A DNA stretch of 64,000 nucleotides from an uncultured Eubacteriales bacterium (lineage in GTDB: Bacteria > Bacillota > Desulfotomaculia > Desulfotomaculales > Pelotomaculaceae): the NCBI GenBank assembly GCA_964397525.1, contig CAYNIY010000003.1:5180-69179 (forward strand), in the 5' to 3' direction. Of this stretch, positions 10,152-28,411 are shown in pieces. The translations under genes and the position numbers were made by a program. Below the pieces are notes generated by a model that did no database searches, was not told where the DNA came from, and worked only from the letters and a program-made list of their open reading frames with translations. The first letter of the stretch is position 1. The number at the start of each line of letters is the position of its first letter.

Positions 10152-12125
10152 TTATGGTTTCCCGGTTATCAGTATCTCAACAACTGTTGGATCAGCTAAT
10201 GTTGAGGTATCCCCAAGATGTTCAAGATCCCCGGATGCTATCTTCCTTAAAATCCTCCTGAGGATTTTACCGCTCCTGGTTTTAGGCAGGGAGTGTGTAA
10301 AGTGTATGACATCCGGGGAAGCAATCGGGCCTATTTCTTTGCGTACAATAGCAACGAGTTCTTTTCTTAAATCCTCCGTCGCGGTAATGCCGTCTAAGAG
10401 CGTTATATAGGCATAAATGCCTTCACCCTTGATATCGTGCGGGTAGCCTACTACAGCTGCCTCAGCCACTTTGGGGTGAGCTACCAGGGAGCTTTCTACT
10501 TCTGCTGTTCCAAGGCGGTGCCCGGATATATTGATCACATCATCCACGCGGCCCATCAGCCAGTAAAACCCGTCCTCATCTTTGCGGGCGCCGTCAGCTG
10601 TGAAATAGCAGCCCGGGTACTGGGTGAAATAAGTGTTTTTAAACTTATCGGGTTCGCCATAGACACCGCGCATGATACCGGGCCATGGTTTTGTAATGAC
10701 CAGGTACCCTCCTTCATTAACCCCAGCCTCTGTGCCGTCCTGGCGAATAACCTTTGGATTTACGCCGAAAAATGGCAGAGTGGCTGAGCCTGGTTTAAGT
10801 GGGACACCACCGGGCAGTGGTGAAATTAAAATTCCGCCTGTTTCAGTCTGCCACCATGTATCGACAACAGGGCATTTTTCTTTTCCGATTATCTTGTAGT
10901 ACCACATCCAGGCTTCGGGATTAATCGGTTCACCAACCGATCCAAGCAGGCGCAGGCTGCTGAGGTTTCTTCCTTGCGGCCACCTGTCGCCATCCCTCAT
11001 CATGGACCTTATAGCTGTAGGTGCGGTATAGAAGATATTTACACCGTATCTTTCTACAATCTCCCAAAACCTGTCCGGATCTGGATAGTTCGGTGTTCCC
11101 TCAAACATCAGGGTTGTAGCGCCGGCTGAGAGGGGACCATAAATGACGTAACTGTGTCCGGTAACCCAGCCGATATCAGCTGTGCACCAGAATATATCTT
11201 CATCCCGGTAATCAAAGATATACTTAAAAGTTGTTGTAGTGTAAACCATGTAACCGCCGGTGGTGTGCAGCACACCCTTGGGCTTTCCGGTGCTGCCGCT
11301 TGTATATAGGATAAACAGCGGGTCTTCCGCATCCATTTCCTCAGGCTCGCAGTCAGCCTGGGCATATCTCATGAGATCATGATACCAGTAGTCGCGGCCT
11401 TCCGTCATTTCACATTCTTTATCAACCCTTTTAACCACGACGCAGTTTTTAATTCTTGGGCAGTCTAACAATGCATCATCAGCGTTTCCTTTGATAGCAA
11501 GGTGTTTGCCGGACCTGTACCCAAAATTACAGGTAATCAGTGTTTCCGCTCCTGCGTCGAGGATCCTGTCACGCAGGGCTTCCGAGCTGTATCCGCCAAA
11601 AACAACGCTGTGGATAGCCCCGATCCTAGTACAGGCCAGCAAGGTTATGGCCAGCTCGGGGATCATCGGCAGGTAAACGGTAACCCGATCCCCTTTCTTT
11701 ATACCCAAATTTTTTAAGACATTTGCAAATCTGCAGACTTCCCGGTGCAGCTGGAGATAAGTATATGTTTTGCTTTCTTCCAGTGGCTCACCCTGCCAGA
11801 TCAGGGCTGCCTTGTTTCGGCGCCAGCTCTTTAGGTGACGATCCAGGCAGTTATAGGAGGCGTTGAGTTTCGCGCCGTGAAAATATCTTATATAGAAATC
11901 ATCAGTGAAATTATATTCTTCAACCGAATCCCATTTTTTATACCAGTCTATTTGTTCTGCCATTTCAGCCCAGAACTCGTCTGGTTTCTCAATTGATTTG
12001 CGCCACATTTCGTTGCGCTGTTCAAGGCTGCTGACGCGCGCCTTTTCCGCAAACTCAGGAGCTGGATAAAAAACCCTGTTTTCGATCAGCGAAGAATCCA
12101 CGCTTCCAGTTTTTTCCCCTGTCAT
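10152..12125 (-). CDS. acs: acetyl-CoA synthetase (AMP-forming)
   Basis: [52 protein letters not shown] with the acetylatable Lys; ATG at 12125 after GGAGGGG. Confidence 0.96.
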
Positions 12126-12594: not shown

Positions 12595-15189
12595 ATGAGG
12601 CTGGATAAACTTACCTTGAAAACACAGGAAGCACTTGAAGATGCACAAAAGATCATGTCTGAACATAGTCACCAGCAGATGGAGAGTGAGCATCTGTTGT
12701 TGGGTTTGCTCCGGCAAGATGAGGGCTTGGTCCGGCAGATCCTGAAAAAAATGGAGATCAATATAGTAAATTTAGAGAATCAGGTTCTGGCCGCTGTGGA
12801 CAGGCTGCCAAAGGTCAGCGGCGCCGGTGGGCCACATGTTTCTCAAGGACTGTCTAAAATCATCGACCTTGCCTGGAAGGAAGCGGAGAGGCTCAAAGAC
12901 GAATACTTGAGTACTGAACATGTATTGCTGGGTATGGTTGCCGGCAGGGAAGGGGAGGCAGGAAAAATCCTGCGTGCAAACGGGGTGACCCAGGACGCTG
13001 TCTATAAGATCCTGCTGGAAATCCGCGGCACCCAGCGTGTAACTGACCAGAATCCCGAGGATAAATACCAGTCCTTGAACCGTTTCACCAGGGACCTGAC
13101 AGAACTGGCCCGCAAAGGCAAGATGGACCCGGTGATCGGCAGGGACGAGGAAATCCGCAGAGTGGTCCAGGTGCTTTCCAGGCGCACAAAAAACAACCCG
13201 GTTTTAATCGGTGAGCCTGGTGTGGGCAAAACAGCAATAGTTGAAGGCCTGGCCCAGCGCATAGTCAGCGGTGATATTCCGGAAAGTTTAAAGAACAAGC
13301 GGCTCCTCAGCCTGGATATAGGCGCTATGGTAGCAGGCTCGAAATACCGGGGTGAGTTTGAGGACCGCCTGAAAGCAGTATTGAAAGAAATCAGTGAAGC
13401 CCAGGGGGAAATCGTCCTCTTCATCGACGAACTGCATACCCTGGTTGGCGCCGGTGCCGCGGAAGGGGCCATGGATGCAGCCAACATGCTTAAGCCGGCA
13501 CTGGCGCGGGGTGAGCTGCGCTGTGTGGGTGCCACTACCCTGGATGAGTTCCGCAAGCATATAGAAAAAGACGCTGCCCTGGAGCGCCGTTTTCAGCCTG
13601 TTTACGTGGGGGAACCCAGTGTAGAGGATACCATTGCTATCTTGAGAGGTCTAAAGGAAAAATATGAAGTGCACCATGGGGTAAGGATAAAAGACGCCGC
13701 CCTAGTGGCTGCGGCGACGCTCTCCCACCGTTATATTTCAGAGCGTTTTCTGCCTGATAAGGCCATTGACCTTATCGACGAAGCGGCTTCCCGCCTGCGG
13801 ATAGAAATCGACAGCATGCCAACTGAAATAGATGAAATCGACAGGCGGATCAGGCAGCTTGAAATTGAAAAGCAAGCGCTGGCCAAGGAACAGGACAGAG
13901 CCAGCCAGGACAGGTTCGAAAAAATGGAAGAAGAACTCCGTACCCTGAAGATAAGTATTGATACCTTGAAGGATCACTGGCACAAGGAAAAAGAATTAAT
14001 TCAAAGCATCCGGGAAATCAAGGAGAGGATTGAAGAGACTCGATTGATGGAACAGGGTGCAGAGCGGGATACCGACCTGGCCAGGGTTGCCGAACTGCGG
14101 TACGGCGTGCTGCCCGAATTAGACAAAAGGCTTCAGCAAAACAATGAAAAGCTGGAAAAACTGCAGATTGAACACAAAATGCTTAAAGAGGAAGTAGATG
14201 AAGAAGATATTGCCGAGGTGGTGTCCAAGTGGACTGGTGTCCCCGTATCCCGGATGCTGGAGGGAGAAGTACAGAAACTGCTTAAGATGGAAGAGCTCCT
14301 GACAAAAAGAGTTGTTGGCCAGGATCGGGCGGTACAGGCAGTTTCTGACGCCATCCGTCGGGCCAGGGCCGGGGTATCCGATCCGAACAGGCCAATGGGA
14401 TCTTTCATATTCCTTGGCCCTACCGGTGTAGGCAAGACCGAGCTGGCAAGAGCGCTGGCGCACTTTCTGTTTAACGATGAGCGGGCCATGCTGCGCTTCG
14501 ACATGAGTGAATATATGGAAAAGCACACAGTTTCAAGGCTGATCGGGGCACCTCCGGGCTACGTCGGTTACGAGGAGGGGGGCCAGCTTACCGAAGCGGT
14601 ACGCCGCCGCCCTTACGCGGTTATTCTGTTTGATGAGATCGAGAAAGCACACCCGGATGTATTCAACATTCTGCTGCAGTTGCTGGATGACGGCCGGCTC
14701 ACGGATGGGCACGGCCGCACCGTAGATTTCCGGAACACGGTAGTGATCATGACCTCAAACCTGGGAGGCCACTTGTTCCGGGAAATCAAGGATGAAAACC
14801 GCGCGGAGCTTGAGGCTCGCGTGATGGAGGAGCTAAGAACTAACTTCCGTCCGGAATTTTTGAACCGCGTTGACGAGGTAGTCATATTCAATAACCTGGG
14901 CAGAGATGAGATTGTCAGGATTGTGGACATCCAGCTGGAGCTGCTTAAACAGCGCCTGGCGAAACTAGGTCTCTCCCTGGAAATTACAGAGGAGACTAAA
15001 GCGCTGTTGGCGGAAGAAGGTTTTGATCCGGTATATGGTGCCAGGCCATTGAAAAGGGCTGTCCAGAGGCGCCTGGAAAATCCGCTTTCGGTGCATATCC
15101 TGGAAGGCAAGAAAGCTCGGGGCGGCGGTATCCTGGTTAAGGTTGATCCGGTGAGCGGCAGCCTGGTCTTTGAAGACCGGCCGGAATAA
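12595..15189 (+). CDS. clpB: ATP-dependent chaperone ClpB
   Basis: Two AAA modules ([16 protein letters not shown]), coiled-coil M domain, 864 aa. Confidence 0.98.
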
Positions 15190-17971: not shown

Positions 17972-17999
17972 TAAAGATTCATCAAAGCCTTGACGATAA
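17972..17999 (+). promoter_or_regulatory. sigma28 (SigD/FliA)-type promoter for flgM
   Basis: TAAA-16 bp-GACGATAA versus consensus TAAA-N15/16-GCCGATAT. Confidence 0.65.
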
Positions 18000-18030
18000 T
18001 TGTGATAGGAAGCAAAGGCAGGTGTTCCAG

Positions 18031-18333
18031 ATGAGGTTAAACGGGTCTTGTGAAACAAGGTCTCTAAAAGCCTATATACCATTATTAAAGAAAGACAGGA
18101 CAATGCAAAAAGAAAAAAATGACTTACAAAGCCCGAGGGACAGGATTGATGTTTTACAGGAAGCTATAAAAATTCTATCATGCAGGAGTGTGTACGATAA
18201 AAAATCAACAGTCCGGGAAGACCTGGTAGCAGGCTTAAAAAAAAGAATACAAGATGGTTTATATAAGCCAGACAGTGAAAAAATTGCTGCCGGTATAATA
18301 TCAGATATATTATTAGCTCAAACCATCGCCTGA
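18031..18333 (+). CDS. flgM: anti-sigma28 factor FlgM (divergent)
   Basis: C-terminal VREDLVAGLKKRIQDGLYKPDSEKIA matches the FlgM sigma-binding region; sigma28 promoter upstream. Confidence 0.8.
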   Translation: MRLNGSCETRSLKAYIPLLKKDRTMQKEKNDLQSPRDRIDVLQEAIKILSCRSVYDKKSTVREDLVAGLKKRIQDGLYKPDSEKIAAGIISDILLAQTIA

Positions 18334-18467
18334 ACTGTCTGAATAAATGCCGTGATCCTAATAGATATAAAAGGAGAGTGATCATCGGATATTTTTAATA
18401 TTATTAAAATGCAAAACATCACTAAAGAAAAATAGTGACGTGAAGGCAAAAAAAAGATGAAGTAAGC

Positions 18468-18494
18468 TAAATTTAAAACGAAATAAGACGATAT
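18468..18494 (+). promoter_or_regulatory. sigma28-type promoter of the former flagellin gene
   Basis: TAAA-15 bp-GACGATAT, followed by a hag-like leader and ATTCATGGAGGAA RBS at 18561-18573. Confidence 0.65.
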
Positions 18495-18572
18495 AGAAAG
18501 TAGAATAATATTTTACGAGGCGGCCGACCCGTAAAAAACCACAAGTAAGCGTTAAGAGAAATTCATGGAGGA

Positions 18573-19088
18573 ATGAAACTGACAAAACAGGATGATTGTC
18601 TTTTGCGGTCCCTTTGTCGAGACAGGCACAAAAAAGTTAACGACTAATATATTATCAATACTTTACACTCAGTAATGTTTGAAAACTAAATGATTAATGC
18701 TTCAGACAGGCGCCAATAATAAGCAAAGCATTTCAACTATAATTGCCAACATAAGAAATAATGGCGGAACCGCTGAATCGATATCAGACCAATCTGTCGT
18801 CTGGATTTTAAAAATGACCTGTGCTGATGCCGCGATTGACATTGTGATTAAACCATTGCACAGACACCTGTAACCCGCTGGATTAGTGTCTGTCAGGAAA
18901 TAGGGAATATCTGACCAATAATGTAATCTTTTAATAGGATTATCGCCAATTTACTCACCTGCAACGTGGACATATGCATAAGTATAATGAGACAGAGCAT
19001 CATGAGCAGATTCGCTGCTATCACAATGTCCATGCTGGCCCGGGCGAACCAACAGACATTTCTGCAATATCCGAAGAATAAGCAATGA
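18573..19088 (+). pseudogene. fliC: heavily decayed flagellin gene
   Basis: Fragments in different frames: LQTGANNKQSISTIIANIR...ADAAIDIV (18697-18873) and NVD-20 aa-MLARANQQ (ending 19088), matching flagellin LQIGAN and the VD-x20-MLAQANQ C-terminus; stops and frameshifts. Confidence 0.72.
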
Positions 19089-19089
19089 C

Positions 19090-19120
19090 CAGGGGAGCCG
19101 GTTAAAGGCTGGTTCCCCTG
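19090..19120 (+). terminator. hairpin after flagellin remnant
   Basis: CAGGGGAGCCGG...CTGGTTCCCCTG inverted repeat; no T tail. Confidence 0.5.
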
Positions 19121-19418
19121 CAGCGAGAGAAACAAACACCAGACATTTAAACAAATCTGGTGTCAGATATAAATTTCATATTAAGTCGTCCTACCAATGA
19201 AACAAAAATAAACTTTGCAAAATCTTAAACATGTTTTTGATGTATCCAATATACTTTAAAAATTAAAATATGCAAAAGGCTTTTTCCCAGCATATAGTAA
19301 TCAAAAAATATTTAGGTTATCAAAAACACGATAGTTATACAAAAACTCAGCGTGTCATTAAAATAAAAACCAAGCTTAAATCAGCTTGGTTTTTTACTAT
19401 TTAATTGACGCAACGAAA

Positions 19419-19433: not shown

Positions 19434-19522
19434 CTGTTTTTATTGCAGGAATACGTTATTTGTTGTAGAATGAATTTACATAAAATAAGGAAAATTGTAC
19501 CTTTAAAATATAATATTTCTGT

Positions 19523-19682
19523 CGGAAAGGGCAAACTTCCCGAAAGGGAGGGGCGCAAAACTTCGGGCCTAAAGCCGAATAATTATACAGCGGACAGGTT
19601 TGGGATTATATTTGTGTTAATTTATTATATCCAAAAACTGTTTTGCTTTTGATTTTTTAGCCAGGGCGGCTGAGTTGCCGGG
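19523..19682 (+). promoter_or_regulatory. cyclic di-GMP-I (GEMM) riboswitch with extended P3
   Basis: GGGCAAAC-TTCCC GAAA GGGAG-GGGCGCAAAAC...GGCCTAAA...GCGGCTGAGTTGCCG; GAAA tetraloop and CTAAA receptor; G at the G20-equivalent position. Confidence 0.85.
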
Positions 19683-19692
19683 ATTGCGTATC

Positions 19693-19723
19693 AAACCAAG
19701 CCCTTTCAATAGGGCTTGGTTTT
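19693..19723 (+). terminator. riboswitch expression-platform terminator
   Basis: AAACCAAGCCCT-ttcaat-AGGGCTTGGTTT then T-rich, 10 nt after the aptamer. Confidence 0.8.
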
Positions 19724-19767
19724 AATATTTATTTGATTTATGTACTTGAGTTATATGTTTTTAAAGT

Positions 19768-21315
19768 TTGAGGTGGTTTACATTGGCCCCGGGTAACTTC
19801 TTTGCCAGGTTAGAAGAGCGATGGCTGGCTCTGAATCCAACCAGAAAATTTTTTGCAGCCCTGGTGATAGCCGGGGTCGTTGTTTCATTGTTTTTCCTTG
19901 GCCAGATGGCGTTCAAATATTCCTATGAGCCCTTGTTAACCGGGCTTGATCCAATAGACGCCGGTGTCATTGCAGAAGAACTTAAAGCCATGAATATTCC
20001 ATACCGATTAACCGATCAAGGAAAAACTATCAGAGTACCGAAAACCCAGGTTTACGAGACGAGAGTCCAGTTGGCAAGCAGTGGAGCGCTCGGCGGCAGT
20101 ATGGGTTTTGAACTTTTTAACCAGGACAAGATCGGCCGTACTGACTTTGAGTTGCAGGTAGATTATCAAAGGGCGCTCCAGGAGGAATTGAGAAGGACCT
20201 TAATCCAGATGGAAGGTATTCAGCAGGCCAGGGTACACCTGGTAATACCGCAAAAAAACGTTATTGTAAATGATAATCAGGGTACAACATCAGCTTCCAT
20301 AGCTCTAAAGCTTGAAACTGCAGCTGAATTGAAACCTGAACAACTTCAGGGCATTTGTGATATTCTTGTCGGCAGCCTGGAGGGGCTGAAACCGGAAAAC
20401 ATACATATAATAGACACTGAAGGCAACATCTTAAGTGACAGCCTGAATATCAATGATCCACAAAACATTGTTACCACAAGGACCGCCCTCGATCAGCAAA
20501 AAGCCCGTAGATTATATGAAAAAGAGCTTGAAAAAAGGGTACAGCAGATGCTTGTCTCAATCCTGGGCCAGAATAAAGCTGTAGCGATGGTCACAGCAGA
20601 TATTGACTTTAATCAAAAACAGATAACCAGCACAACTTCTACCAATCCTCAAAATCTTAAAACCAGTGAGCATTTCACAAAGGAAAGCGGGTCGGGGAGT
20701 GAAACCTGGGAAGCACCAGACACAGATCCCAAAGCTGCGGCTGATCAACCTCCCATTGGCAGCGGCACATCAAGCTATTACAAGGAAGATAGTGAAATAA
20801 AGTATCAGGTGGACACTAAGGAGGAAACCCTGATCAATGCGCCCGGAAGTATCATTCGGCTGTCTGCTTCTGTGGTAGTCAATGAATCTGATGGTGTTTT
20901 GGATACCCAGAAGGTGAAAGACGTTGTTGCAGCAGCCATTGGATTCAACCAGAACCGTGGAGATCAGATAAATGTCTCCAGCATGGTTTTTGACGACACC
21001 TACCAGAAAAAGGTCGAGGACGAAATGGCGCTGCTTGAAACAAAAGCCTCAGCAAAAGAACGATTCAACACTTACATCCGGATTGGGAGTCTGGCGTCAG
21101 CTGCATTCCTGGTCTTAATCCTATCAACAATTATTTGGCGGCGCAGTGCGCTGCGTGTTGATACCATTGACAGGAATGGTTTTGTTCCAGTAAAAGATAT
21201 TGAAGCGGGAGAATTTACTGTCTACAGGAATGATAAACAGCAGAGAATCAGAGATATGGCCAAAGAAAAACCTGAAGAAATAGCCGAACTTTTAAAAGTA
21301 TGGATCAAAGATTAA
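19768..21315 (+). CDS. fliF: flagellar MS-ring protein FliF
   Basis: Two TM segments, GFELFNQ, YQRALQEELRRT, ARVHLVIP, C-terminal AKEKPEEIAELLKVWI; true start may be TTG 19783. Confidence 0.93.
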   Translation: MRWFTLAPGNFFARLEERWLALNPTRKFFAALVIAGVVVSLFFLGQMAFKYSYEPLLTGLDPIDAGVIAEELKAMNIPYRLTDQGKTIRVPKTQVYETRVQLASSGALGGSMGFELFNQDKIGRTDFELQVDYQRALQEELRRTLIQMEGIQQARVHLVIPQKNVIVNDNQGTTSASIALKLETAAELKPEQLQGICDILVGSLEGLKPENIHIIDTEGNILSDSLNINDPQNIVTTRTALDQQKARRLYEKELEKRVQQMLVSILGQNKAVAMVTADIDFNQKQITSTTSTNPQNLKTSEHFTKESGSGSETWEAPDTDPKAAADQPPIGSGTSSYYKEDSEIKYQVDTKEETLINAPGSIIRLSASVVVNESDGVLDTQKVKDVVAAAIGFNQNRGDQINVSSMVFDDTYQKKVEDEMALLETKASAKERFNTYIRIGSLASAAFLVLILSTIIWRRSALRVDTIDRNGFVPVKDIEAGEFTVYRNDKQQRIRDMAKEKPEEIAELLKVWIKD

Positions 21316-21321
21316 GGGGGT

Positions 21322-22338
21322 TTGGCATTGCAGCGAAAAAAGCTTACAGGCGTTCAGAAAGCAGCAATCCTGCTAATAGCATTAGGATCCGACCTGTCTT
21401 CCCGGGTGTTGAAACTGGACTTTGATCAGGATGACATAGAGTTGCTCACCCAAGAGATATCCAATTTGGCTGAAATTCCGTCTGAGGTCAGAAACGCGGT
21501 TATTGACGAGTTTATAGAACTGCAGAAAACGAGGGATTACCTTTCTCATGGAGGTTTAAGCTACGCGAAAGAAGTTCTGGAAAAGGTTGTTGGCCATCAG
21601 AAAACTGCAGAAATACTGAACAAGCTTAATATTGATATGAAAGACAAACCATTCAGTTCGCTTCGCAAAATTGACGCCAAACAAATTTATAACTTTATAT
21701 ATGAAGAGCACCCGCAGACAATTGCTTTAATACTTGCTCACCTCACACCTGAGCAGGCAGCAATTATACTGGGCATGATGCCGCCAGAACAGCAGAGTGA
21801 AATTTCCAGGAGGATAGCAATCTTAGATCGTTTCACCCCTGACATTGTAAGGGATGTCGAAAGTTTGTTGGAAACAAAACTATCAGCGGTGGTGCATCAG
21901 GAGCAAACTATGGTGGGCGGTGTGCAGTTTTTGGTTGATGTCCTCAATAAGGTTGGCAGAAGCACTGAGAAGGTTATAATGGATGGACTTGAGAAAGAGG
22001 ACATGGAGCTGGCGGAAGAAGTATATGGAAGTATGTTTGTGTTTGAAGACCTTGTTAAATTGCCGGACAGCTTTGTCCAGAGGATGCTGAAAGAGGTTGA
22101 TTCAAATGATCTAACGCTGGCTATGCGGGGCGCTGATCAGGAAGTGAATGCCAGGATTTACAAAAATATGTCCAAGCGGGCTGCTGAAATGATTAAGGAA
22201 GAAATTGAATTTATAGGCCCAGTAAAGCTGAAAGAGGTTGAAAAAGCACAGCGTAAAATTGCAGCTATCATCCGAAAGCTGGATGATAGTGGTGAAATCG
22301 CGAAATTTCGTGGTAGTGGTGATGCCATCACGGCTTGA
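21322..22338 (+). CDS. fliG: flagellar motor switch protein FliG
   Basis: TGVQKAAILL, EHPQTIA, GGVQ linker, MFVFEDL, NMSKRAAEMIKEE. Confidence 0.96.
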   Translation: MALQRKKLTGVQKAAILLIALGSDLSSRVLKLDFDQDDIELLTQEISNLAEIPSEVRNAVIDEFIELQKTRDYLSHGGLSYAKEVLEKVVGHQKTAEILNKLNIDMKDKPFSSLRKIDAKQIYNFIYEEHPQTIALILAHLTPEQAAIILGMMPPEQQSEISRRIAILDRFTPDIVRDVESLLETKLSAVVHQEQTMVGGVQFLVDVLNKVGRSTEKVIMDGLEKEDMELAEEVYGSMFVFEDLVKLPDSFVQRMLKEVDSNDLTLAMRGADQEVNARIYKNMSKRAAEMIKEEIEFIGPVKLKEVEKAQRKIAAIIRKLDDSGEIAKFRGSGDAITA

Positions 22339-22467
22339 AATAATTTCAAACGCTGGTATGTATGATTTAATGATAGTATAACAGTATCGGAGCTCCATCA
22401 TAGCTTTCCAAATAATTATAGTTTACTATGGCAATAAAGGACTAAAATCTAGAGAGGGGTAAAGGCT

Positions 22468-22848
22468 GTGTTGACAGAAGATGAAATTAGATCCTTCCTG
22501 ACCGGGGGTAATGCCGGCGCAGCTGCTATAAAAAAAGCAAAGTTTCCCTCTCTGGAACCGGTAAAAGCGGTCAATATGGCCTCATCCAACATGTCCCACC
22601 TGGAAGATGTCCAGATCGAAATTAGTGTGGAACTTGGTCAAGCCAGCATTAAAATTAAAGACGTGCTTGGCCTTGCCAGGGGTTCTGTGATCAAGCTGAA
22701 TAAAACAGCAGGTGATGAAATGGATGTGGTTATGAACGGCCAGCATTTCGCAAAAGGTGAGGTCGTTGTGAACAAAGATTCTTTCGGTTTAAGGATCGCC
22801 TCAATCAACCCTGCTCATCATTTAAAACTGACCGATGGAATAACTTAA
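22468..22848 (+). CDS. fliN: flagellar motor switch protein FliN
   Basis: SpoA domain ISVELGQA...GSVIKLNKTAGDEMDVVMNG...GEVVV...FGLRI. Confidence 0.9.
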   Translation: MLTEDEIRSFLTGGNAGAAAIKKAKFPSLEPVKAVNMASSNMSHLEDVQIEISVELGQASIKIKDVLGLARGSVIKLNKTAGDEMDVVMNGQHFAKGEVVVNKDSFGLRIASINPAHHLKLTDGIT

Positions 22849-22984
22849 GCAGTTCAGGTCCCAGCCCGGGATGCAGGGGCTAAAAATTTTGCGGGAATTG
22901 CTGGTTTGGTCTGGATTAACAGGAATAACTAATCTTTTTCAGAATAAGTATAGTATTATTAATAAGTTAGCAGGGTGAACCCTG

Positions 22985-23062
22985 CCGAACCAGGTAATTT
23001 CTCCCTCCGCGAGATAGTAAATAACTGATGTCGAGGCCTTAGGGACGGTGTTGCTTGATTGA
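22985..23062 (+). pseudogene. flhA: 3' remnant of flhA
   Basis: Frameshifted LPNQVIS-LREIV-N-DVEALGTVLLD* whose TGA overlaps the flhF TTG start, the usual flhA-flhF junction. Confidence 0.6.
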
Positions 23063-24366
23063 AAATAAAACGTTATTTAGTTAGAGAAATGCAGGAAGCT
23101 ATTCGGCTTATCAAACAGGACCTTGGTTCCGATGCAGTAATTGTAAGCAGTTATAAGGTCTCTGCCAAGGGTTTGATTGGTCTTTTTTCGCCGCGTCTAC
23201 TTGAAGTTACCGCTGTCCTGGATGACAATCCTGAAATTCAATTAAGTGTCGGTTGCCCGCCTGCACAAATGGCTGTAACAGAAGGCGAAAGCCGCGGAAG
23301 AGAAATTGGCCCTGCGAATGAAATGGCCGGGCTGCTATCAGAAAACAAAAAATTTAAGCATACCAGGCCCAGGAATGTATACGCCAACGCCAATAGTAAT
23401 GCTGACCAAAGCAGTACAAGGTATTTACCCCATGAATTAAAGAAGAAATTGACTACAGATAAAGCTGCCAACTGGTCAGTTATTGAAGACATGGACGAGC
23501 CTGAAAAAGATGAGAAGCATATTTTTGAAACATCAACAACAGGCAAAATAAAAGTCGGATCAAACGGTGATCCAGGCCCCAATTGGAGAAAGACGCTTCT
23601 TAATATGGATATCGGTGAAGATATTGTTGAACAACTGTTGTCAACTGCAGAATGTATTCAGGATCAACCTGAATCAAAAGCACAATTTGCTTATTTTTCC
23701 CTGTTAAAACAAATAACAAATCTTCTTGAGCCAGCATACCAATTAAAGGATCGTCCCAGGATATTAACTTTTATGGGCCCTCCAGGCGGGGGTAAAACAA
23801 CAACACTAATCAAGCTTGCCACCCGTTTCAAAGTATTTGAAAACAAAAGGATAGCCCTGGTGGGAGTAAGCAACTACCGAATCGGTGGTGATGACCAGCT
23901 GCATGCTTACGGCAAATTCCTGGATGTGTCGGTTGATGTGGTGATGACGCCTGCCGAACTTGTTAAGGCGCTGGATGATCATGTTGATAAAGATTTAATA
24001 TTAATTGACACCTATGGCCGTTCACCCTGGAATACAGGGAAAGTGTTGGAACTAAAGAGCTTTTTAAATGTGCTGGATGAACCTCACGAGGATTATTTAG
24101 TGCTCAACGCCTCTTCAAAGAACAGGGATCTGGTGAAAACAGCCAGTGAATTTAACAGAGTTGGTTTTACAAAAATAGTCTTTACCCGGATTGACGAGAC
24201 TGAAACGCACGGTTCAATATTGAACCTGGTTTACAATACCGGCGTACCAGTGGCTTATCTGGCCGGGGGCCAGAAAATACCTGATGACATCAGTGAAGCG
24301 AGCCCGAAGATAATTGCAAAATTATTATTTAAGGGGGTTGACCCCGATGAAATTATGGCAACCTAG
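23059..24366 (+). CDS. flhF: SRP-family GTPase FlhF
   Basis: MKIKRYLV..MQEAIRLIKQDLGSDAVI N-terminus; GPPGGGKTTT, DTYGRSP, TRIDET. Confidence 0.93.
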   Translation: MKIKRYLVREMQEAIRLIKQDLGSDAVIVSSYKVSAKGLIGLFSPRLLEVTAVLDDNPEIQLSVGCPPAQMAVTEGESRGREIGPANEMAGLLSENKKFKHTRPRNVYANANSNADQSSTRYLPHELKKKLTTDKAANWSVIEDMDEPEKDEKHIFETSTTGKIKVGSNGDPGPNWRKTLLNMDIGEDIVEQLLSTAECIQDQPESKAQFAYFSLLKQITNLLEPAYQLKDRPRILTFMGPPGGGKTTTLIKLATRFKVFENKRIALVGVSNYRIGGDDQLHAYGKFLDVSVDVVMTPAELVKALDDHVDKDLILIDTYGRSPWNTGKVLELKSFLNVLDEPHEDYLVLNASSKNRDLVKTASEFNRVGFTKIVFTRIDETETHGSILNLVYNTGVPVAYLAGGQKIPDDISEASPKIIAKLLFKGVDPDEIMAT

Positions 24367-25213
24367 GACGGGTCAGAGTTATTATCATAACAGCATTTTG
24401 AAAAACGAAAGCTGCTTATGGGGGCCCAAAGCCATAGCGGTGGCAAGCGGTAAGGGTGGAGTTGGCAAAACATCAATTACGGTCAATTTGGCCCTTTGCC
24501 TGGCCCAGAAAGGCAACCAGGTGACCATTTTTGACGCGGATCTTGGTTTGGCTAATGCTGAGGTGCTGCTTGGGATAATACCGCCATACAGTCTTTTTGA
24601 AGTGCTTTACGGGGGTATGACACTGGAAGATATCGCAGTTCAGGGGCCCTGCGGCATCAGGGTGATTTCCGGGGGGTCCGGTTTTCTGGAGATGGCTAAC
24701 CTGGATCGAACACGTCGCCAGCAGCTCCTCAGGATGTTTAACCAGTTTGTAAGTAAGGATGAAATTGTTCTTATCGATACCAGCGCTGGAATAAATAAAA
24801 ATGTTCTTGGTTTTGTAGCTGCCGCCGAGGAAGTCATTATTGTTGTCACACCGGAGCCAACATCGCTTACAGATGCCTATGCTTTGATCAAAATATTAGC
24901 CAACTTCAAACTTCATTCGGAGGTCAATGTAATAGTTAACCGTGCTGTTGACAGGCAAGAGGCCATGCGCACACTCAGCAGGATATCTACAGCAGCCGGC
25001 CGTTTTCTCGACATAAAAATTAATTTTTTAGGCTGGGTTCCGGAAGACAAATCAGTATCCCAGGCTGTGAAGAACCAGCAGCCATATTTTTTAACAAACA
25101 AAAATTCGCCGGCTTCCCGCAGCATTGCCGGGATTGCTGAATACCTTGTTGGAGATGACCATATAGCCCCAAGAGAAGGATTTTGGACCAAGCTGATGGG
25201 TTTATTCAGCTAG
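24347..25213 (+). CDS. flhG: MinD-like ATPase FlhG/FleN
   Basis: SGKGGVGKTS, DADLGLAN, PEPTSLTDAYALIK; follows flhF. Confidence 0.93.
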   Translation: MKLWQPRTGQSYYHNSILKNESCLWGPKAIAVASGKGGVGKTSITVNLALCLAQKGNQVTIFDADLGLANAEVLLGIIPPYSLFEVLYGGMTLEDIAVQGPCGIRVISGGSGFLEMANLDRTRRQQLLRMFNQFVSKDEIVLIDTSAGINKNVLGFVAAAEEVIIVVTPEPTSLTDAYALIKILANFKLHSEVNVIVNRAVDRQEAMRTLSRISTAAGRFLDIKINFLGWVPEDKSVSQAVKNQQPYFLTNKNSPASRSIAGIAEYLVGDDHIAPREGFWTKLMGLFS

Positions 25214-25296
25214 GGTGGTATGTTTGACGAAGATGTCCGGTGTTCAAATAATATAGGTGATGAGTGTAACTTAAATTATTCAAGGGGTGTGAATGA

Positions 25297-26052
25297 ATGG
25301 CTGTCACCGATGAGATTTGGCGGAGTTATCGCCAGTCCAGGGACGCGGAGCTTAAAAATGAAATTGTTTTAGCTCACCTGCCCCTTGTTAAATATCTCGC
25401 CGGTCGGCTGGCGGTGAAACTGCCTTCATTTATTGGGCAGGAAGACCTGGAAAGCTATGGTGTTTTTGGTCTAATGGAAGCCGTGGATAAATTTGATCCT
25501 GATCTGGGTGTGAGTTTTAAGGCTTATGCCTACAACAGGATACGCGGGGCAATGATTGATGAGATAAGAAAGCTTAACTGGATTCCCCGCACATTGTGGC
25601 AAAAAATTCAGCTCCTGAATGCAACCAAGGAAAAATTGCAAAAAGAGCTCGGGGAGCAGATCAGTTACGAAGTATTGGCTGGTGCTATGGGAATAACAAT
25701 ATCAGAGCTGTATAAACTGGAAGGGCAGGTTAACCTTCTTTCCCTGTCATCTCTGGATGAAACAATATCTCTGGCAGATGGTGAAAGAGTGAGGTGGGGG
25801 GATATGATTCGAGATCCCGACAGCCCTGATCCTTTGGATATTGTAGAGAGTGATGAAAGCAAGCGTCTTTTGATAAAAGCCATAGAGGATCTTCCGGATA
25901 AAGACAGAACTGTCCTTGCTCTTTACTACCAGGAAGAACTGACATTAAAGGAAATTGGCAAGGTCCTTAACGTTTCCGAGTCGAGGGTTTGTCAATTACA
26001 TACAAGGGCTTTAAACAGGTTGAGGGGTAAACTGGAACAGGCAGCTTATTGA
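25297..26052 (+). CDS. fliA: RNA polymerase sigma28 (FliA/SigD/WhiG family)
   Basis: DLESYGVFGLMEAVDKFD, RIRGAMIDEIR, LTLKEIGKVLNVSESRVCQLH. Confidence 0.95.
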   Translation: MAVTDEIWRSYRQSRDAELKNEIVLAHLPLVKYLAGRLAVKLPSFIGQEDLESYGVFGLMEAVDKFDPDLGVSFKAYAYNRIRGAMIDEIRKLNWIPRTLWQKIQLLNATKEKLQKELGEQISYEVLAGAMGITISELYKLEGQVNLLSLSSLDETISLADGERVRWGDMIRDPDSPDPLDIVESDESKRLLIKAIEDLPDKDRTVLALYYQEELTLKEIGKVLNVSESRVCQLHTRALNRLRGKLEQAAY

Positions 26053-26100
26053 GATACAGCTAGGGTAAAACGATAAAATAGAATTAGGGCTGATTGAATT

Positions 26101-27090
26101 ATGGATAAAATATCTCCCAAAGAAATAAATGCCTTGCTGGATGCCATGTCAACCAGTGAGATCAAAATGAATGAGCTGCAGAAATCACTGCAACCTGCAG
26201 AATGCGAGCTCTATGACTTCCGGCACCCTGATAAGTTCACCAAGGAACAACTTTGTGCGCTGGAGGTTATGCACAGCGGATTTACACGACTTCTTTCCAG
26301 TTATTTATCTGGCTACCTGCGCTGTAATATACAAATTGAGGTTGCTTCCATTGTTCAATTGACATATGAAGACTTTATACATTCTGTTCCCAATCCTGCG
26401 GTGCTGACATTATTTTCTATAAATCCTTTAAAAGGAACGGCGATAGCCCAGTTAGATCCGGTGTTTCTTTTTCCAGTGATAGATCTGTTTTTTGGCGGAA
26501 GTGGAGTAACCCCCAAAAGCATTCGCGATTTGACTGATATCGAACTCTCAGTCACCAGAAAACTAATGACAAAAATTTTGGATAACCTTGCCTTGGCCTG
26601 GAAAGACATTATCCGGTTTGTACCAGTTGTTGATTCTGTAGAGACCAATCCTGATCGGATACAGGTTTATTCTTTAAATGAAACAGTTGCTTTGGTTTCC
26701 TTAACTGCTGGAGTTGGGGCATCGGCAAAAGGATTTATTAACCTGTGTCTGCCATACAACTTGCTTGAGCCGGTGGTGTCTAGGCTTACTCTGCAAAGAC
26801 GCTGCGGGCCCCGAATATCTGAGAGCAACGAGGCGGATAAAAGGAAGCTGCAGCAGTGGCTCGAAATGCCGGCTGTGGAGCTTACAGTCCTGGCAGGCCA
26901 AACATTGATGCAGGTGAACGATTTTCTTCAATTACAGGAAGGGGACGTATTGCTGCTGGATAGAAGGGTGGATCAGGATATGGACTTGTATGTTGATGAA
27001 CAAATGATATGCAAAGTTAAGGCTGGTTATATGGGCAGCCAGCTTGCTGTTCAAATCACTGCGCTTGTGGAGGGCGAAAAAGATGGCTAG
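26101..27090 (+). CDS. fliM: flagellar motor switch protein FliM
   Basis: ISPKEINALL, YDFRHPDKF, GFINLCLPY, C-terminal SpoA domain. Confidence 0.93.
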   Translation: MDKISPKEINALLDAMSTSEIKMNELQKSLQPAECELYDFRHPDKFTKEQLCALEVMHSGFTRLLSSYLSGYLRCNIQIEVASIVQLTYEDFIHSVPNPAVLTLFSINPLKGTAIAQLDPVFLFPVIDLFFGGSGVTPKSIRDLTDIELSVTRKLMTKILDNLALAWKDIIRFVPVVDSVETNPDRIQVYSLNETVALVSLTAGVGASAKGFINLCLPYNLLEPVVSRLTLQRRCGPRISESNEADKRKLQQWLEMPAVELTVLAGQTLMQVNDFLQLQEGDVLLLDRRVDQDMDLYVDEQMICKVKAGYMGSQLAVQITALVEGEKDG

Positions 27091-28378
27091 GCTATTAAAA
27101 CAGGAAGAGATTGACGCTCTCCTGCACACGCAAAACCATGAACTTGTCCTGCCGGAAGAGGCGGAAGCAGGCACATTAGGGGAGCAGGCCCAAAAGAAAA
27201 AAGCGGCAAAAAAAACTCGCGCAGAGCAGATAATTGAACCAAGTACAAAAATAGTTGAGGTGCAACCTGACTTCGCCGGAGATTTTTTAACTGAAGATGA
27301 AATGGACTCCCTGGGCGAAGTCGGCAATATGTACATGGGTTCGGCGGCAGCTGCACTTTCCACGCTTTTCAACCAAAATGTGAAATTCACAGAGCCGAGA
27401 TTAACCATATCAACTTTGGAAGACCTATTAAACGGTTTTCTAACGCCGCATATGGTCGTTTTTATGCGTTTCACCGAAGGGCTATCAGGTTTCAACATGC
27501 TGATTATGAAAATAAAAGACGTTAATGTATTAGCCGATTTGATGATGGGCGGAAAAGGTATAAATGTACCGGTAGAAGCAAATGAGATTAGTACAATTGC
27601 AGCGGTTAAGGCTTTAAAAAAGATGATCAGCACTGCATCTACCTCAATGGCTGCAATGTTAAACCGTATGGTTAAAATTTCTCCGCCTGAGATAAAAGTT
27701 TGTAACAGCGTTGATGATATTAAATTTACATCATTTAGCCCGGGAGATCCAATGGTTGTTGTCCGATATAAGATGACAATTGGGGATATACTGGACACAC
27801 AAATTATGAGGGTCATGGGTTTTGATACAGCGAAAGAAGAAGCAGGACTTTTCCTCAGCAGATTAATGGGCCAGGGCAAAGAACTGCCTGCGCCAGCGGC
27901 AGAAGAAACAATTGGTGAAGACCTGACCTTAGCTGCAGATGAACAAGCCGCCTCGATTGATCTTGATCATATCAATATGGAAGACAAAACGGAGCCTGCT
28001 GCATCAGTTAATCAGGTCAGACAGCATGAAGTATCAGCTGTGGTGAAGCCGGAGCAAGTCCCTGCTTTGTTTGAGCTGCCTTCAAAAGCAGAACCCGCTG
28101 ATTATGGTTATGACCAGCAGCGCCTGGAGCTGATACTTGATATACCTTTAAAGATTACAGTCCTGCTGGGGCGAACCAGATTACCGATTAAAGATATATT
28201 GGGCCTGGCTCCGGGATCTGTTATTGAGATGCAGAGTCTGGTTGATGAACCGGTGGAAATTCTGGTTAACGGGACACTGGTGGCTACCGGTGAAATTGTT
28301 GTAGTGCATGATAATTATGGTGTCAGAATATCCAATATCATCACACCCAGGGAAAGGCTGCAGAACCTGGGAACTTGA
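27083..28378 (+). CDS. fliY: flagellar switch protein FliY (CheC-like + FliN domain)
   Basis: LLKQEEIDALL, DSLGEVGNMYMGSAAAALS, LILDIPLKITVLLGRT...YGVRI. Confidence 0.88.
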   Translation: MARLLKQEEIDALLHTQNHELVLPEEAEAGTLGEQAQKKKAAKKTRAEQIIEPSTKIVEVQPDFAGDFLTEDEMDSLGEVGNMYMGSAAAALSTLFNQNVKFTEPRLTISTLEDLLNGFLTPHMVVFMRFTEGLSGFNMLIMKIKDVNVLADLMMGGKGINVPVEANEISTIAAVKALKKMISTASTSMAAMLNRMVKISPPEIKVCNSVDDIKFTSFSPGDPMVVVRYKMTIGDILDTQIMRVMGFDTAKEEAGLFLSRLMGQGKELPAPAAEETIGEDLTLAADEQAASIDLDHINMEDKTEPAASVNQVRQHEVSAVVKPEQVPALFELPSKAEPADYGYDQQRLELILDIPLKITVLLGRTRLPIKDILGLAPGSVIEMQSLVDEPVEILVNGTLVATGEIVVVHDNYGVRISNIITPRERLQNLGT

Positions 28379-28384
28379 ATACTC

Positions 28385-28411
28385 AAAAAAAGCCCTTCAA
28401 GGGCTTTTTTT
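28385..28411 (+). terminator. intrinsic terminator ending the fli operon
   Basis: AAAAAAAGCCC-ttcaa-GGGCTTTTTTT. Confidence 0.85.

Follow-up and report, generated by a model that had tools for sequence, protein, structure and literature searches.

What does a bacterium keep a flagellar rotor for when it has no flagellum to turn? The question is raised by a stretch of 64,000 nucleotides (hereafter the window) on contig CAYNIY010000003.1 of assembly GCA_964397525.1, from an uncultured Eubacteriales bacterium, in which one operon encodes the MS-ring and C-ring proteins of the flagellum, the placement proteins FlhF and FlhG, and the sigma factor sigma-28. The organism is a small-genome Pelotomaculum of anaerobic digesters, represented by a 1.92-Mb metagenome-assembled genome (MAG) in 136 contigs that is 98% complete, and its closest relatives are Pelotomaculum sp. 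UBA4789 and P. propionicicum C1. Our results indicated that the rotor core appears to serve some purpose besides motility. We consider it probable that the operon is a selection-maintained, lineage-specific remnant of the Pelotomaculum flagellar operon, encoding an MS/C-ring platform that lacks the export gate, does not rotate, is placed by FlhF and FlhG and is switched by cyclic di-GMP (c-di-GMP).

The eight open reading frames (ORFs) of the operon, fliF, fliG, fliN, flhF, flhG, fliA, fliM and fliY, are unbroken and span 19768-28378, and Pfam profiles matched all eight products over the full domain length. Coordinates are window positions throughout, and the genes of the module all lie on the plus strand, at 17.8-28.4 kb. 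Read along that strand, the hflX terminator is followed by a sigma-28-like promoter, flgM, about 1.1 kb of non-coding DNA, a riboswitch with its terminator, the eight genes and a hairpin. An earlier note on this DNA, made from the sequence alone, had described eight full-length, uninterrupted rotor, FlhFG and sigma-28 genes, and the ORFs and domain coverage bear this out. Alignments likewise agreed with it on the motifs: both transmembrane segments and the FliG-binding C-terminal tail of FliF are conserved, and FliG has the EHPQ motif, the GG linker and the charged torque helix that it had called a ridge. The terminator said to close the operon was recognized after fliY as a GC stem followed by seven T residues; this hairpin was not listed by the terminator consensus scan, and its four G-C pairs could be extended by A-T pairs. 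The distance from the riboswitch terminator to fliF, put at about 45 bp, was found to be 45-60 bp. With regard to the two gene scars that had been proposed, the flhA remnant is real but tiny (about 50 bp), while two collinear C-terminal motif matches at 18700-19055 (E-values of 0.04 and 0.2) give weak support for the flagellin remnant. What had been missed was flgM with its sigma-28-like promoter, as well as the likely true start of fliF, a TTG at 19783 preceded by the ribosome-binding site GAGGTGG.

To describe what has been lost, we compared the window with the flagellated congener P. propionicicum C1 (NZ_JBMGJC010000005; G002), whose flagellar region was annotated with Pfam, and took the fla/che operon of Bacillus subtilis as the general model. 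In P. propionicicum C1, all of the flagellar genes lie within one region of about 55 kb. Its 5' part runs clpB-DUF362-hflX-motA-motB-flgM-flgN-flgK-flgL-[about 10 kb including flagellin]-fliD-fliS-flgN-like-flaG-riboswitch, its middle part continues from the riboswitch with flgB-flgC-fliE-fliF-fliG-fliH-fliI-fliJ-fliK-flgD-flbD-flgE-fliL-fliN-fliO-fliP-fliQ-fliR-flhB-flhA, and its 3' part continues from flhA with flhF-flhG-PilZ-fliA-two rod genes-cheD-cheR-cheC-cheY-fliM-fliY-metallophosphoesterase. The genes retained in the window are orthologous to those of this region (55-89% amino-acid identity) and agree with them in order and strand, and the flanks are also common to both (clpB-DUF362-hflX upstream and metallophosphoesterase-HAD-DUF503 downstream). 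However, about 35 genes of P. propionicicum C1 are missing in the window: motAB, flgN/K/L, flagellin, fliD/S, flaG, flgB/C, fliE, fliH/I/J/K, flgD/E, flbD, fliL, fliO/P/Q/R, flhB/A, PilZ, two rod genes and cheD/R/C/Y. The comparison of gene orders thus shows that at least seven deletions, each independent of the others, reduced the operon at its ancestral locus.

The positions of these deletions can be followed along the window. Where motAB would be expected, hflX and flgM are separated by a spacer of 173 bp, and the scar at 18334-19414 corresponds to a deletion of about 17 kb that contained flgN, flgK, flgL, flagellin and modification genes, fliD, fliS and flaG. Since fliN sits between fliL and fliO in P. 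propionicicum C1, a fliH-to-fliL block has been deleted upstream of it in the window, and this deletion and that of fliO to flhA left spacers of 129 bp (22339-22467) and 210 bp (22849-23058). The PilZ/YcgR-like gene that precedes fliA in P. propionicicum C1 is deleted, and so are the two rod genes, cheD, cheR, cheC and cheY of the fliA-fliM interval. The losses are clean deletions and not erosion, for which "excised", the word chosen in the earlier note, was apt. The 129- and 210-bp spacers show indel polymorphism among strains and species, and the ribosome-binding sites for fliN and flhF are kept in them.

The missing genes were then sought in the whole assembly. Pfam searches for FlhA (FHIPEP), Flagellin_N and CheW were negative there, while the same searches were positive in flagellated congeners. 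When every ORF of the P. propionicicum C1 flagellar region was used as a tblastn query against the whole assembly, only the retained genes and flanking housekeeping genes were found. Genome-wide, there were no matches for the export genes FlhA, FlhB, FliP/Q/R and FliH/I/J, the FliI query finding only ATP-synthase paralogs; none in the genome for FlgB/C/D/E/F/G/K/L, FliE, FliD and FliK; and none at E <=1e-5 for MotA and MotB, which had been identified by Pfam in P. propionicicum C1. No CheW-domain protein, and no CheA/CheW, was found in the genome by Pfam. Thus, the axial, export, stator and cheY genes, reported earlier as absent from their usual positions, are absent from the genome and not just locally, and among the components of a functional flagellum only the MS- and C-ring proteins are present, with the export, axial, filament and stator components lacking. 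Because gate, ATPase, rod, hook, filament, stator and chemotaxis kinase are all lacking, secretion, rotation, propulsion and a response to CheY are beyond the retained set. What is retained is the set of flagellar parts that assemble without type III export: MS-ring, C-ring, FlhF/FlhG, sigma-28/FlgM and the ancestral riboswitch. The genome as a whole is about half the size of those of flagellated congeners (1.9 Mb vs 3.3-3.5 Mb), and this halving, together with the lack of CheW-domain proteins, suggests a streamlined, probably aggregate-bound syntroph.

Metagenome contigs from other studies span riboswitch-fliF-fliG-fliN, fliG-fliN-flhF-flhG-fliA and fliA-fliM with 0-3 differences, and because these contigs were assembled independently and cross the junctions, the architecture is not a misassembly. 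The same reduced operon is present in a second species, Pelotomaculum sp. UBA4789 (G006), in which 17 kb align collinearly with the window (88.8% nucleotide identity). A third lineage, about 93% identical and found in another metagenome, has the same fliG-fliN and fliN-flhF junctions. In a search for reduced relatives, the genome contigs yielded only UBA4789 and the metagenome contigs one 2.4-kb contig at 93% identity.

The existence of two species with the reduced operon allowed us to estimate selective constraint by the ratio of nonsynonymous to synonymous substitution rates (dN/dS). The estimates compare the window genome with UBA4789 (both reduced; dS about 0.25) and are pairwise only, as synonymous sites are saturated in comparisons with flagellated relatives (dS 1.2-1.8). 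The bootstrap upper 95% limits of dN/dS were all <=0.62, and the pooled value was 0.159 (confidence interval, CI, 0.135-0.191); gene by gene, the ratios resembled those of the housekeeping genes on either side (Table 1). Between the two species, the 8.2 kb of coding sequence contains 0 frameshifts, 0 stops and 2 in-frame indels. The neighbouring 1,081-bp scar, which was taken as the neutral standard, has 83% identity to UBA4789 and 22 indel events; at these rates, about 167 indels would be expected in the coding sequence, and a neutral simulation gave about 49 premature stops. In addition, strain-level indels in four metagenomes were confined to non-coding spacers. Because dN/dS is low and the frames are open while the scar has accumulated many indels, neutral decay since the species split is excluded, and the module is under purifying selection. 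A very recent transfer of the locus is unlikely, since the flanks have the same dS. Compared with the flagellated pair P. propionicicum C1 and G007, constraint is equal or tighter on FlhG and FliA and similar on FliF and FliY.

Constraint was also resolved by domain and surface. Tight domains were FliG_M with the EHPQ region (dN/dS 0.05), the ring-building regions of FliF (0.16), the FliF tail (0.11) and the SpoA domain of FliY (0.11), and the N-terminus of FlhF gave 0.00. FlhF residues 1-70 (window 23059-23268) are 100% identical to UBA4789 and 99% identical to P. propionicicum C1, while the remainder of the FlhF B region has only about 53% identity to P. propionicicum C1. Such extreme constraint looks like that of an interaction surface, perhaps the counterpart of the FliG-interaction domain reported from Shewanella. 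FlhG conserves the deviant Walker A motif GKGGVGKT and a C-terminal amphipathic membrane helix, EGFWTKLMGLFS, so that the components of an FlhF/FlhG placement system, namely an SRP54 GTPase, a MinD-like ATPase with Walker A and helix, and EIDAL on FliY, are all present. The N-terminal LLKQEEIDALL of FliY is intact and identical to that of flagellated relatives, and its EIDAL is a candidate docking motif for FlhG. In contrast, codons 1-40 of FliM have a dN/dS of 0.89 vs 0.07 in the flagellated pair, the CheY-binding motif LSQxEIDALL of FliM is altered to ISPKEIN(A/T)LL, and at the second of the CheC-type catalytic sites in FliY, VKALKKM stands in place of SEAMNQM. The FliM EIDAL motif has been described as the CheY binding site (PMC6946799), while in B. 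subtilis the partner of FlhG is FliY and not FliM (PMC12826062). The constraint pattern fits these published partner maps: surfaces for the lost partners CheY and CheA look relaxed or lost and those for retained partners look kept, the stator charges of FliG being the exception. A CheY signalling hub, one of the roles suggested previously, is unlikely, as no CheW protein is encoded, the operon cheY is deleted, and the CheY end of FliM and one phosphatase site of FliY are degraded.

Table 1. Features of the reduced flagellar locus in window positions, with pairwise dN/dS between the window genome and UBA4789
Feature	Position	Strand	Evidence and remarks	dN/dS
Sigma-28-like promoter	17972..17999	+	TAAA-N16-GACGATAA, 23 nt 5' of flgM; genome-wide motif scan, consensus match only	
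flgM (anti-sigma-28 factor), intact	18022..18333	+	Pfam FlgM 1.8e-9; ortholog of P. propionicicum C1 flgM	0.16
Non-coding scar	18334..19414	.	Synteny with P. propionicicum C1; weak flagellin C-terminal remnant ~18700-19055 (+)	
c-di-GMP-I riboswitch aptamer	19520..19682	+	Rfam RF01051, 60.6 bits	
Intrinsic terminator, presumed riboswitch expression platform	19693..19727 (19693-19722 in the terminator scan)	+	12-bp stem, then T-rich tail	
fliF (MS-ring), full length	19768..21315	+	Pfam YscJ_FliF + YscJ_FliF_C; 68% identity to P. propionicicum C1 FliF	0.17
fliG (rotor, C-ring top)	21322..22338	+	Pfam FliG_N, FliG_M, FliG_C	0.13
fliN (SpoA-domain C-ring protein)	22468..22848	+	Pfam FliMN_C; synteny	0.30 (CI 0.13-0.62)
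flhA 3'-end scar, directly 5' of flhF	23010..23058	+	blastn 83% identity to last ~50 bp of P. propionicicum C1 flhA	
flhF (signal recognition particle-type GTPase, flagellar placement)	23059..24366	+	Pfam SRP54	0.13
flhG (MinD-like ATPase)	24314..25213	+	Pfam ParA/CbiA/MinD-type	0.05
fliA (sigma-28)	25297..26052	+	Pfam Sigma70_r2/r4; 89% identity to P. propionicicum C1 FliA	0.04 (0.036, lowest)
fliM	26101..27090	+	Pfam FliM + FliMN_C; synteny	0.33 (0.325, highest)
fliY (EIDAL N-terminus, CheC-like domain, SpoA domain)	27044..28378	+	Pfam CheC + FliMN_C	0.19
Terminator-like hairpin at operon end	~28386..28411	+	GCCC-TTCAA-GGGC then T7, read from sequence	
Flanking housekeeping genes				0.08-0.19

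The regulatory parts of the ancestral locus have persisted as well. The riboswitch scored 60.6 bits against an Rfam gathering score of 35, with the terminator starting 11 nt 3' of the aptamer, and it is homologous to the one preceding flgB in P. propionicicum C1. Within one hairpin the window aptamer has an 82-nt insertion, and riboswitch and leader together are the best conserved non-coding piece, with 95.8% identity to UBA4789; the hflX-flgM spacer has 95% identity to the same genome. For the P. propionicicum C1 riboswitch (G002:C5:127575-127682, minus strand) the highest-scoring family was the variant c-di-GMP-I-GGC (RF03167, 62.9 bits); for the riboswitches of the reduced lineages it was plain c-di-GMP-I. 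Synthesis of c-di-GMP is encoded in the genome, which has 8 GGDEF proteins. The sigma-28/FlgM pair is complete according to Pfam, with FliA-type sigma-70 regions 2 and 4 and an FlgM-domain anti-sigma factor. A genome-wide motif scan for a sigma-28 regulon gave, apart from the flgM promoter, matches no better than noise with unremarkable ORFs downstream.

A different outcome was observed in G008, another aflagellate genome of the genus (94% complete), in which only flgM, a riboswitch and fliA lie between hflX and the metallophosphoesterase gene (contig C24, 13660-15297). The c-di-GMP-I riboswitch of G008 (14318-14423, 67.6 bits) is directly 5' of fliA, an arrangement that makes this locus a predicted c-di-GMP-controlled sigma factor without a flagellum to regulate. 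In a tree of five linked proteins, G008 was sister to the flagellated G007 (99/98 support), and its loss is therefore independent. Thus, the circuit of riboswitch, sigma-28 and FlgM has survived flagellar loss twice, in lineages independent of each other, and the rotor with FlhF/G has done so only in the lineage studied here. On the same contig of G008, a group II intron D1-D4 fragment (11856-12083, 108.8 bits) lies between clpB and hflX, a position occupied by the DUF362/4Fe-4S gene in the window and in P. propionicicum C1.

We infer from these data a series of events through which the retained genes might act. At permissive c-di-GMP, the riboswitch would allow readthrough into the operon, a direction taken from the flgB riboswitch of Clostridioides difficile. 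FlhF would then capture membrane-inserted FliF with FliG, and FlhG, docking at the EIDAL motif of FliY, would load FliM, FliY and FliN onto FliG. The product would be an MS/C-ring plaque, closed and unable to rotate, that sits on the cytoplasmic membrane; its selected role would be to give the MinD-like ATPase FlhG and the GTPase FlhF a platform for positioning or regulation. Such a plaque would report the c-di-GMP state or mark a cell site, for example for wall growth, division or aggregation in the syntrophic floc. That it is a free-standing organelle without gate or stator, acting as a c-di-GMP-switched spatial or signalling hub that titrates FlhG or marks the pole in aggregated syntrophic cells, is a more specific idea that we put forward tentatively and regard as somewhat doubtful. 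With respect to expression, contigs of a small soil metatranscriptome were 95-97% identical over fliF, fliG, flhF, flhG, fliA, fliY and one flanking gene, with none over the scar, and provide weak evidence of transcription.

Several observations weigh against such a platform. The export gate helps MS-ring assembly in model organisms, and assembly without the gate is an assumption. FliG retains its stator-facing charges in the absence of any stator, which could equally mean that the loss is not especially old. The constraint on the C-ring is 2-3 times looser than in the flagellated pair (FliM 0.33 vs 0.10, FliN 0.30 vs 0.15 and FliG 0.13 vs 0.065), so that part of the ancestral function of the C-ring genes is evidently gone. 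The aflagellate G008 discarded the rotor and FlhF/G altogether, and the rotor is not generally needed in the genus. Moreover, the evidence for the clade comprises two genomes and some metagenome contigs, and the RNA data consist of contigs only, which belong to a near relative and come from a single small metatranscriptome in which DNA carry-over is possible.

Other explanations of the retained genes were evaluated against the same data. If the flagellum were complete, with the missing genes hidden in unassembled or unbinned DNA, the fragmentation of the MAG into 136 contigs would be to blame, and the UBA4789 MAG does hold a 6.9-kb contig (G006:C109, 1-6931) with flagellin (595 aa), fliD, fliS, flgB, flgC, fliE and a second fliF. 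We nevertheless regard this as extremely improbable: the ancestral locus itself shows the deletions, independent assemblies agree, the window MAG is 98% complete and FlhA is missing in both reduced MAGs. The second FliF shares 48% identity with the resident FliF and 53% with that of P. propionicicum C1, which is below within-genus values; with this divergence, no flhA, and 4% contamination of the UBA4789 MAG, the contig is probably mis-binned from another family member and its flagellin match was set aside, a second flagellar locus in UBA4789 being improbable. The possibility that the genes are functionless leftovers awaiting disabling mutations, which the earlier note had raised as an intermediate stage of flagellar loss, is in keeping with the coexistence of full, rotor-only and flgM/fliA-only states in a genus where loss is ongoing, with the still faintly recognisable flagellin scar and with the raised dN/dS of the C-ring. 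However, two species at a dS of about 0.25 keep nine ORFs open next to a scar with 22 indels in 1.1 kb, no frameshift or stop has appeared where about 167 indels and 49 stops were expected, dN/dS is 0.16 and the genome is already strongly reduced (1.9 Mb vs 3.5 Mb); the indel and stop counts and dN/dS contradict an intermediate stage, and we hold it to be very unlikely. The frames from fliF to flhG might instead be open only because nonsense or frameshift mutations in them would, through transcriptional polarity, lower the expression of fliA, an essential downstream regulator dependent on the riboswitch promoter. It is true that fliA lies downstream in the same riboswitch-controlled unit and that in G008 the riboswitch is fused directly to it, making riboswitch-to-fliA a conserved core, but polarity leaves unexplained both the selection against amino-acid replacements (dN/dS 0.13-0.33) and the retention of fliM and fliY, which are 3' of fliA. 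In addition, at least seven deletions within the operon were tolerated, so the route of deletion was open, and a motif scan found a sigma-70-like promoter match in the flhG-fliA spacer; this explanation is highly improbable.

The strongest alternative is that only FlhF, FlhG and sigma-28/FlgM moonlight, the ring proteins persisting as partners or stabilisers without any ring assembly that matters. FlhG (0.05), FliA (0.04) and the FlhF N-terminus (0.00) are indeed the most constrained parts and FliM and FliN the least, FliA and FlgM are retained even in G008 where all else is lost, and FlhG has non-flagellar partners or roles in GpsB binding in B. subtilis and division control in Campylobacter jejuni (PMC12826062, PMC6946799). 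On the other hand, the five ring genes have dN/dS values of 0.13-0.33 with upper limits <1, and the ring-building domains (FliF ring-building regions 0.16, FliG_M 0.05, FliY SpoA 0.11) match the flanking housekeeping genes in constraint. G008 also shows that FliA/FlgM is independent of the rotor, so sigma-28 cannot account for rotor retention. We therefore consider moonlighting of these proteins alone unlikely and favour the FlhF/FlhG-positioned scaffold under c-di-GMP control, which was among the roles listed in the earlier note. Its general proposal of selection for a non-motility role is sustained by the lack of the missing genes elsewhere in the genome and by dN/dS values of 0.04-0.33; neither of the outcomes it had named as contrary, intact missing genes elsewhere or dN/dS near 1 without expression, was found. 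Its suggestion of a division cue, taken as a replacement for Min, gained no special support. We had considered that FlhG and the C-ring might stand in for a missing Min system and rejected this, because MinC, MinD and MinE are encoded, in the usual mreBCD-PBP2-minCDE-rodA cluster.

To determine how common the rotor-only state is, we surveyed 401 genomes of the phylum with a completeness of >=90%, of which 304 have FlhA. FliG was detected in 3 FlhA-negative genomes (G063, G221 and G255), and all three proved to be normal operons cut at contig ends, as did a further candidate in the family (G017). Three more aflagellate genomes of the family have no FliG. In total, the phylum sample and the family include about 100 aflagellate genomes, and fliG in a reduced module was found in none; the rotor-only state is thus rare and not the usual path of decay. 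Flagellar loss is common, and within this phylum it normally leaves nothing behind.

In Pelotomaculum, a part in contacts with partner methanogens has been ascribed to the flagellum. The present locus amounts to a natural experiment, in which a flagellum was cut to its export-independent core and purifying selection then preserved this core across one or more speciation events. A non-motility function of the rotor, FlhF and FlhG, which in model organisms is confounded by a working flagellum, is thereby isolated, and the locus makes testable whether MS- and C-rings can assemble and matter without the export gate, with a minimal eight-gene cassette offered for reconstitution. If the free-standing organelle exists, selection could act on a function that the first intermediate of flagellar assembly performs by itself.

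Several known systems resemble parts of this one. In C. difficile, the flgB operon is headed by a class I c-di-GMP riboswitch (Cd1) plus terminator, and the window likewise has a class I aptamer and then a terminator at the head of an early flagellar operon; unlike Cd1, the riboswitch here has a rotor-only operon downstream (fliA alone in G008), and its aptamer has the 82-nt insertion. The retained gene set equals the early assembly module, in which FlhF is responsible for capturing FliF/FliG and FlhG for loading FliM/FliN or FliY (reviewed in PMC12826062); the EIDAL motif of FliY, the helix of FlhG and the N-terminus of FlhF are conserved in the window. However, in all organisms studied elsewhere this module is an intermediate toward a complete flagellum, whereas here it would be the end product. 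Non-motility roles of the same proteins are known: FlhG of B. subtilis binds GpsB, a non-flagellar partner (PMC12826062), and in C. jejuni FlhG and the MS- and C-ring proteins spatially control cell division (Balaban & Hendrixson 2011, via PMC6946799). The role in C. jejuni, control of the division site, needs exactly FliF, FliM, FliN and FlhG, but C. jejuni is fully flagellated and without Min, while the genome studied here has MinC/D/E and no flagellum.

In the open-access literature we found no published report of a rotor-only flagellar remnant. The basal bodies of Buchnera are a flagellar remnant in which the export apparatus is kept. Similarly, the non-flagellated Lysobacter enzymogenes OH11 keeps the flagellar type III export machinery (FT3SS) (PMC7688988). 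As in these two organisms, a subset of flagellar genes has been kept in the Pelotomaculum lineage after the loss of motility and a new role is proposed for it. Flagellar remnants with new roles are already known, but with the export machine kept; the Pelotomaculum lineage has the complementary subset, in which the export machine has been lost and the export-independent rotor parts have been kept.

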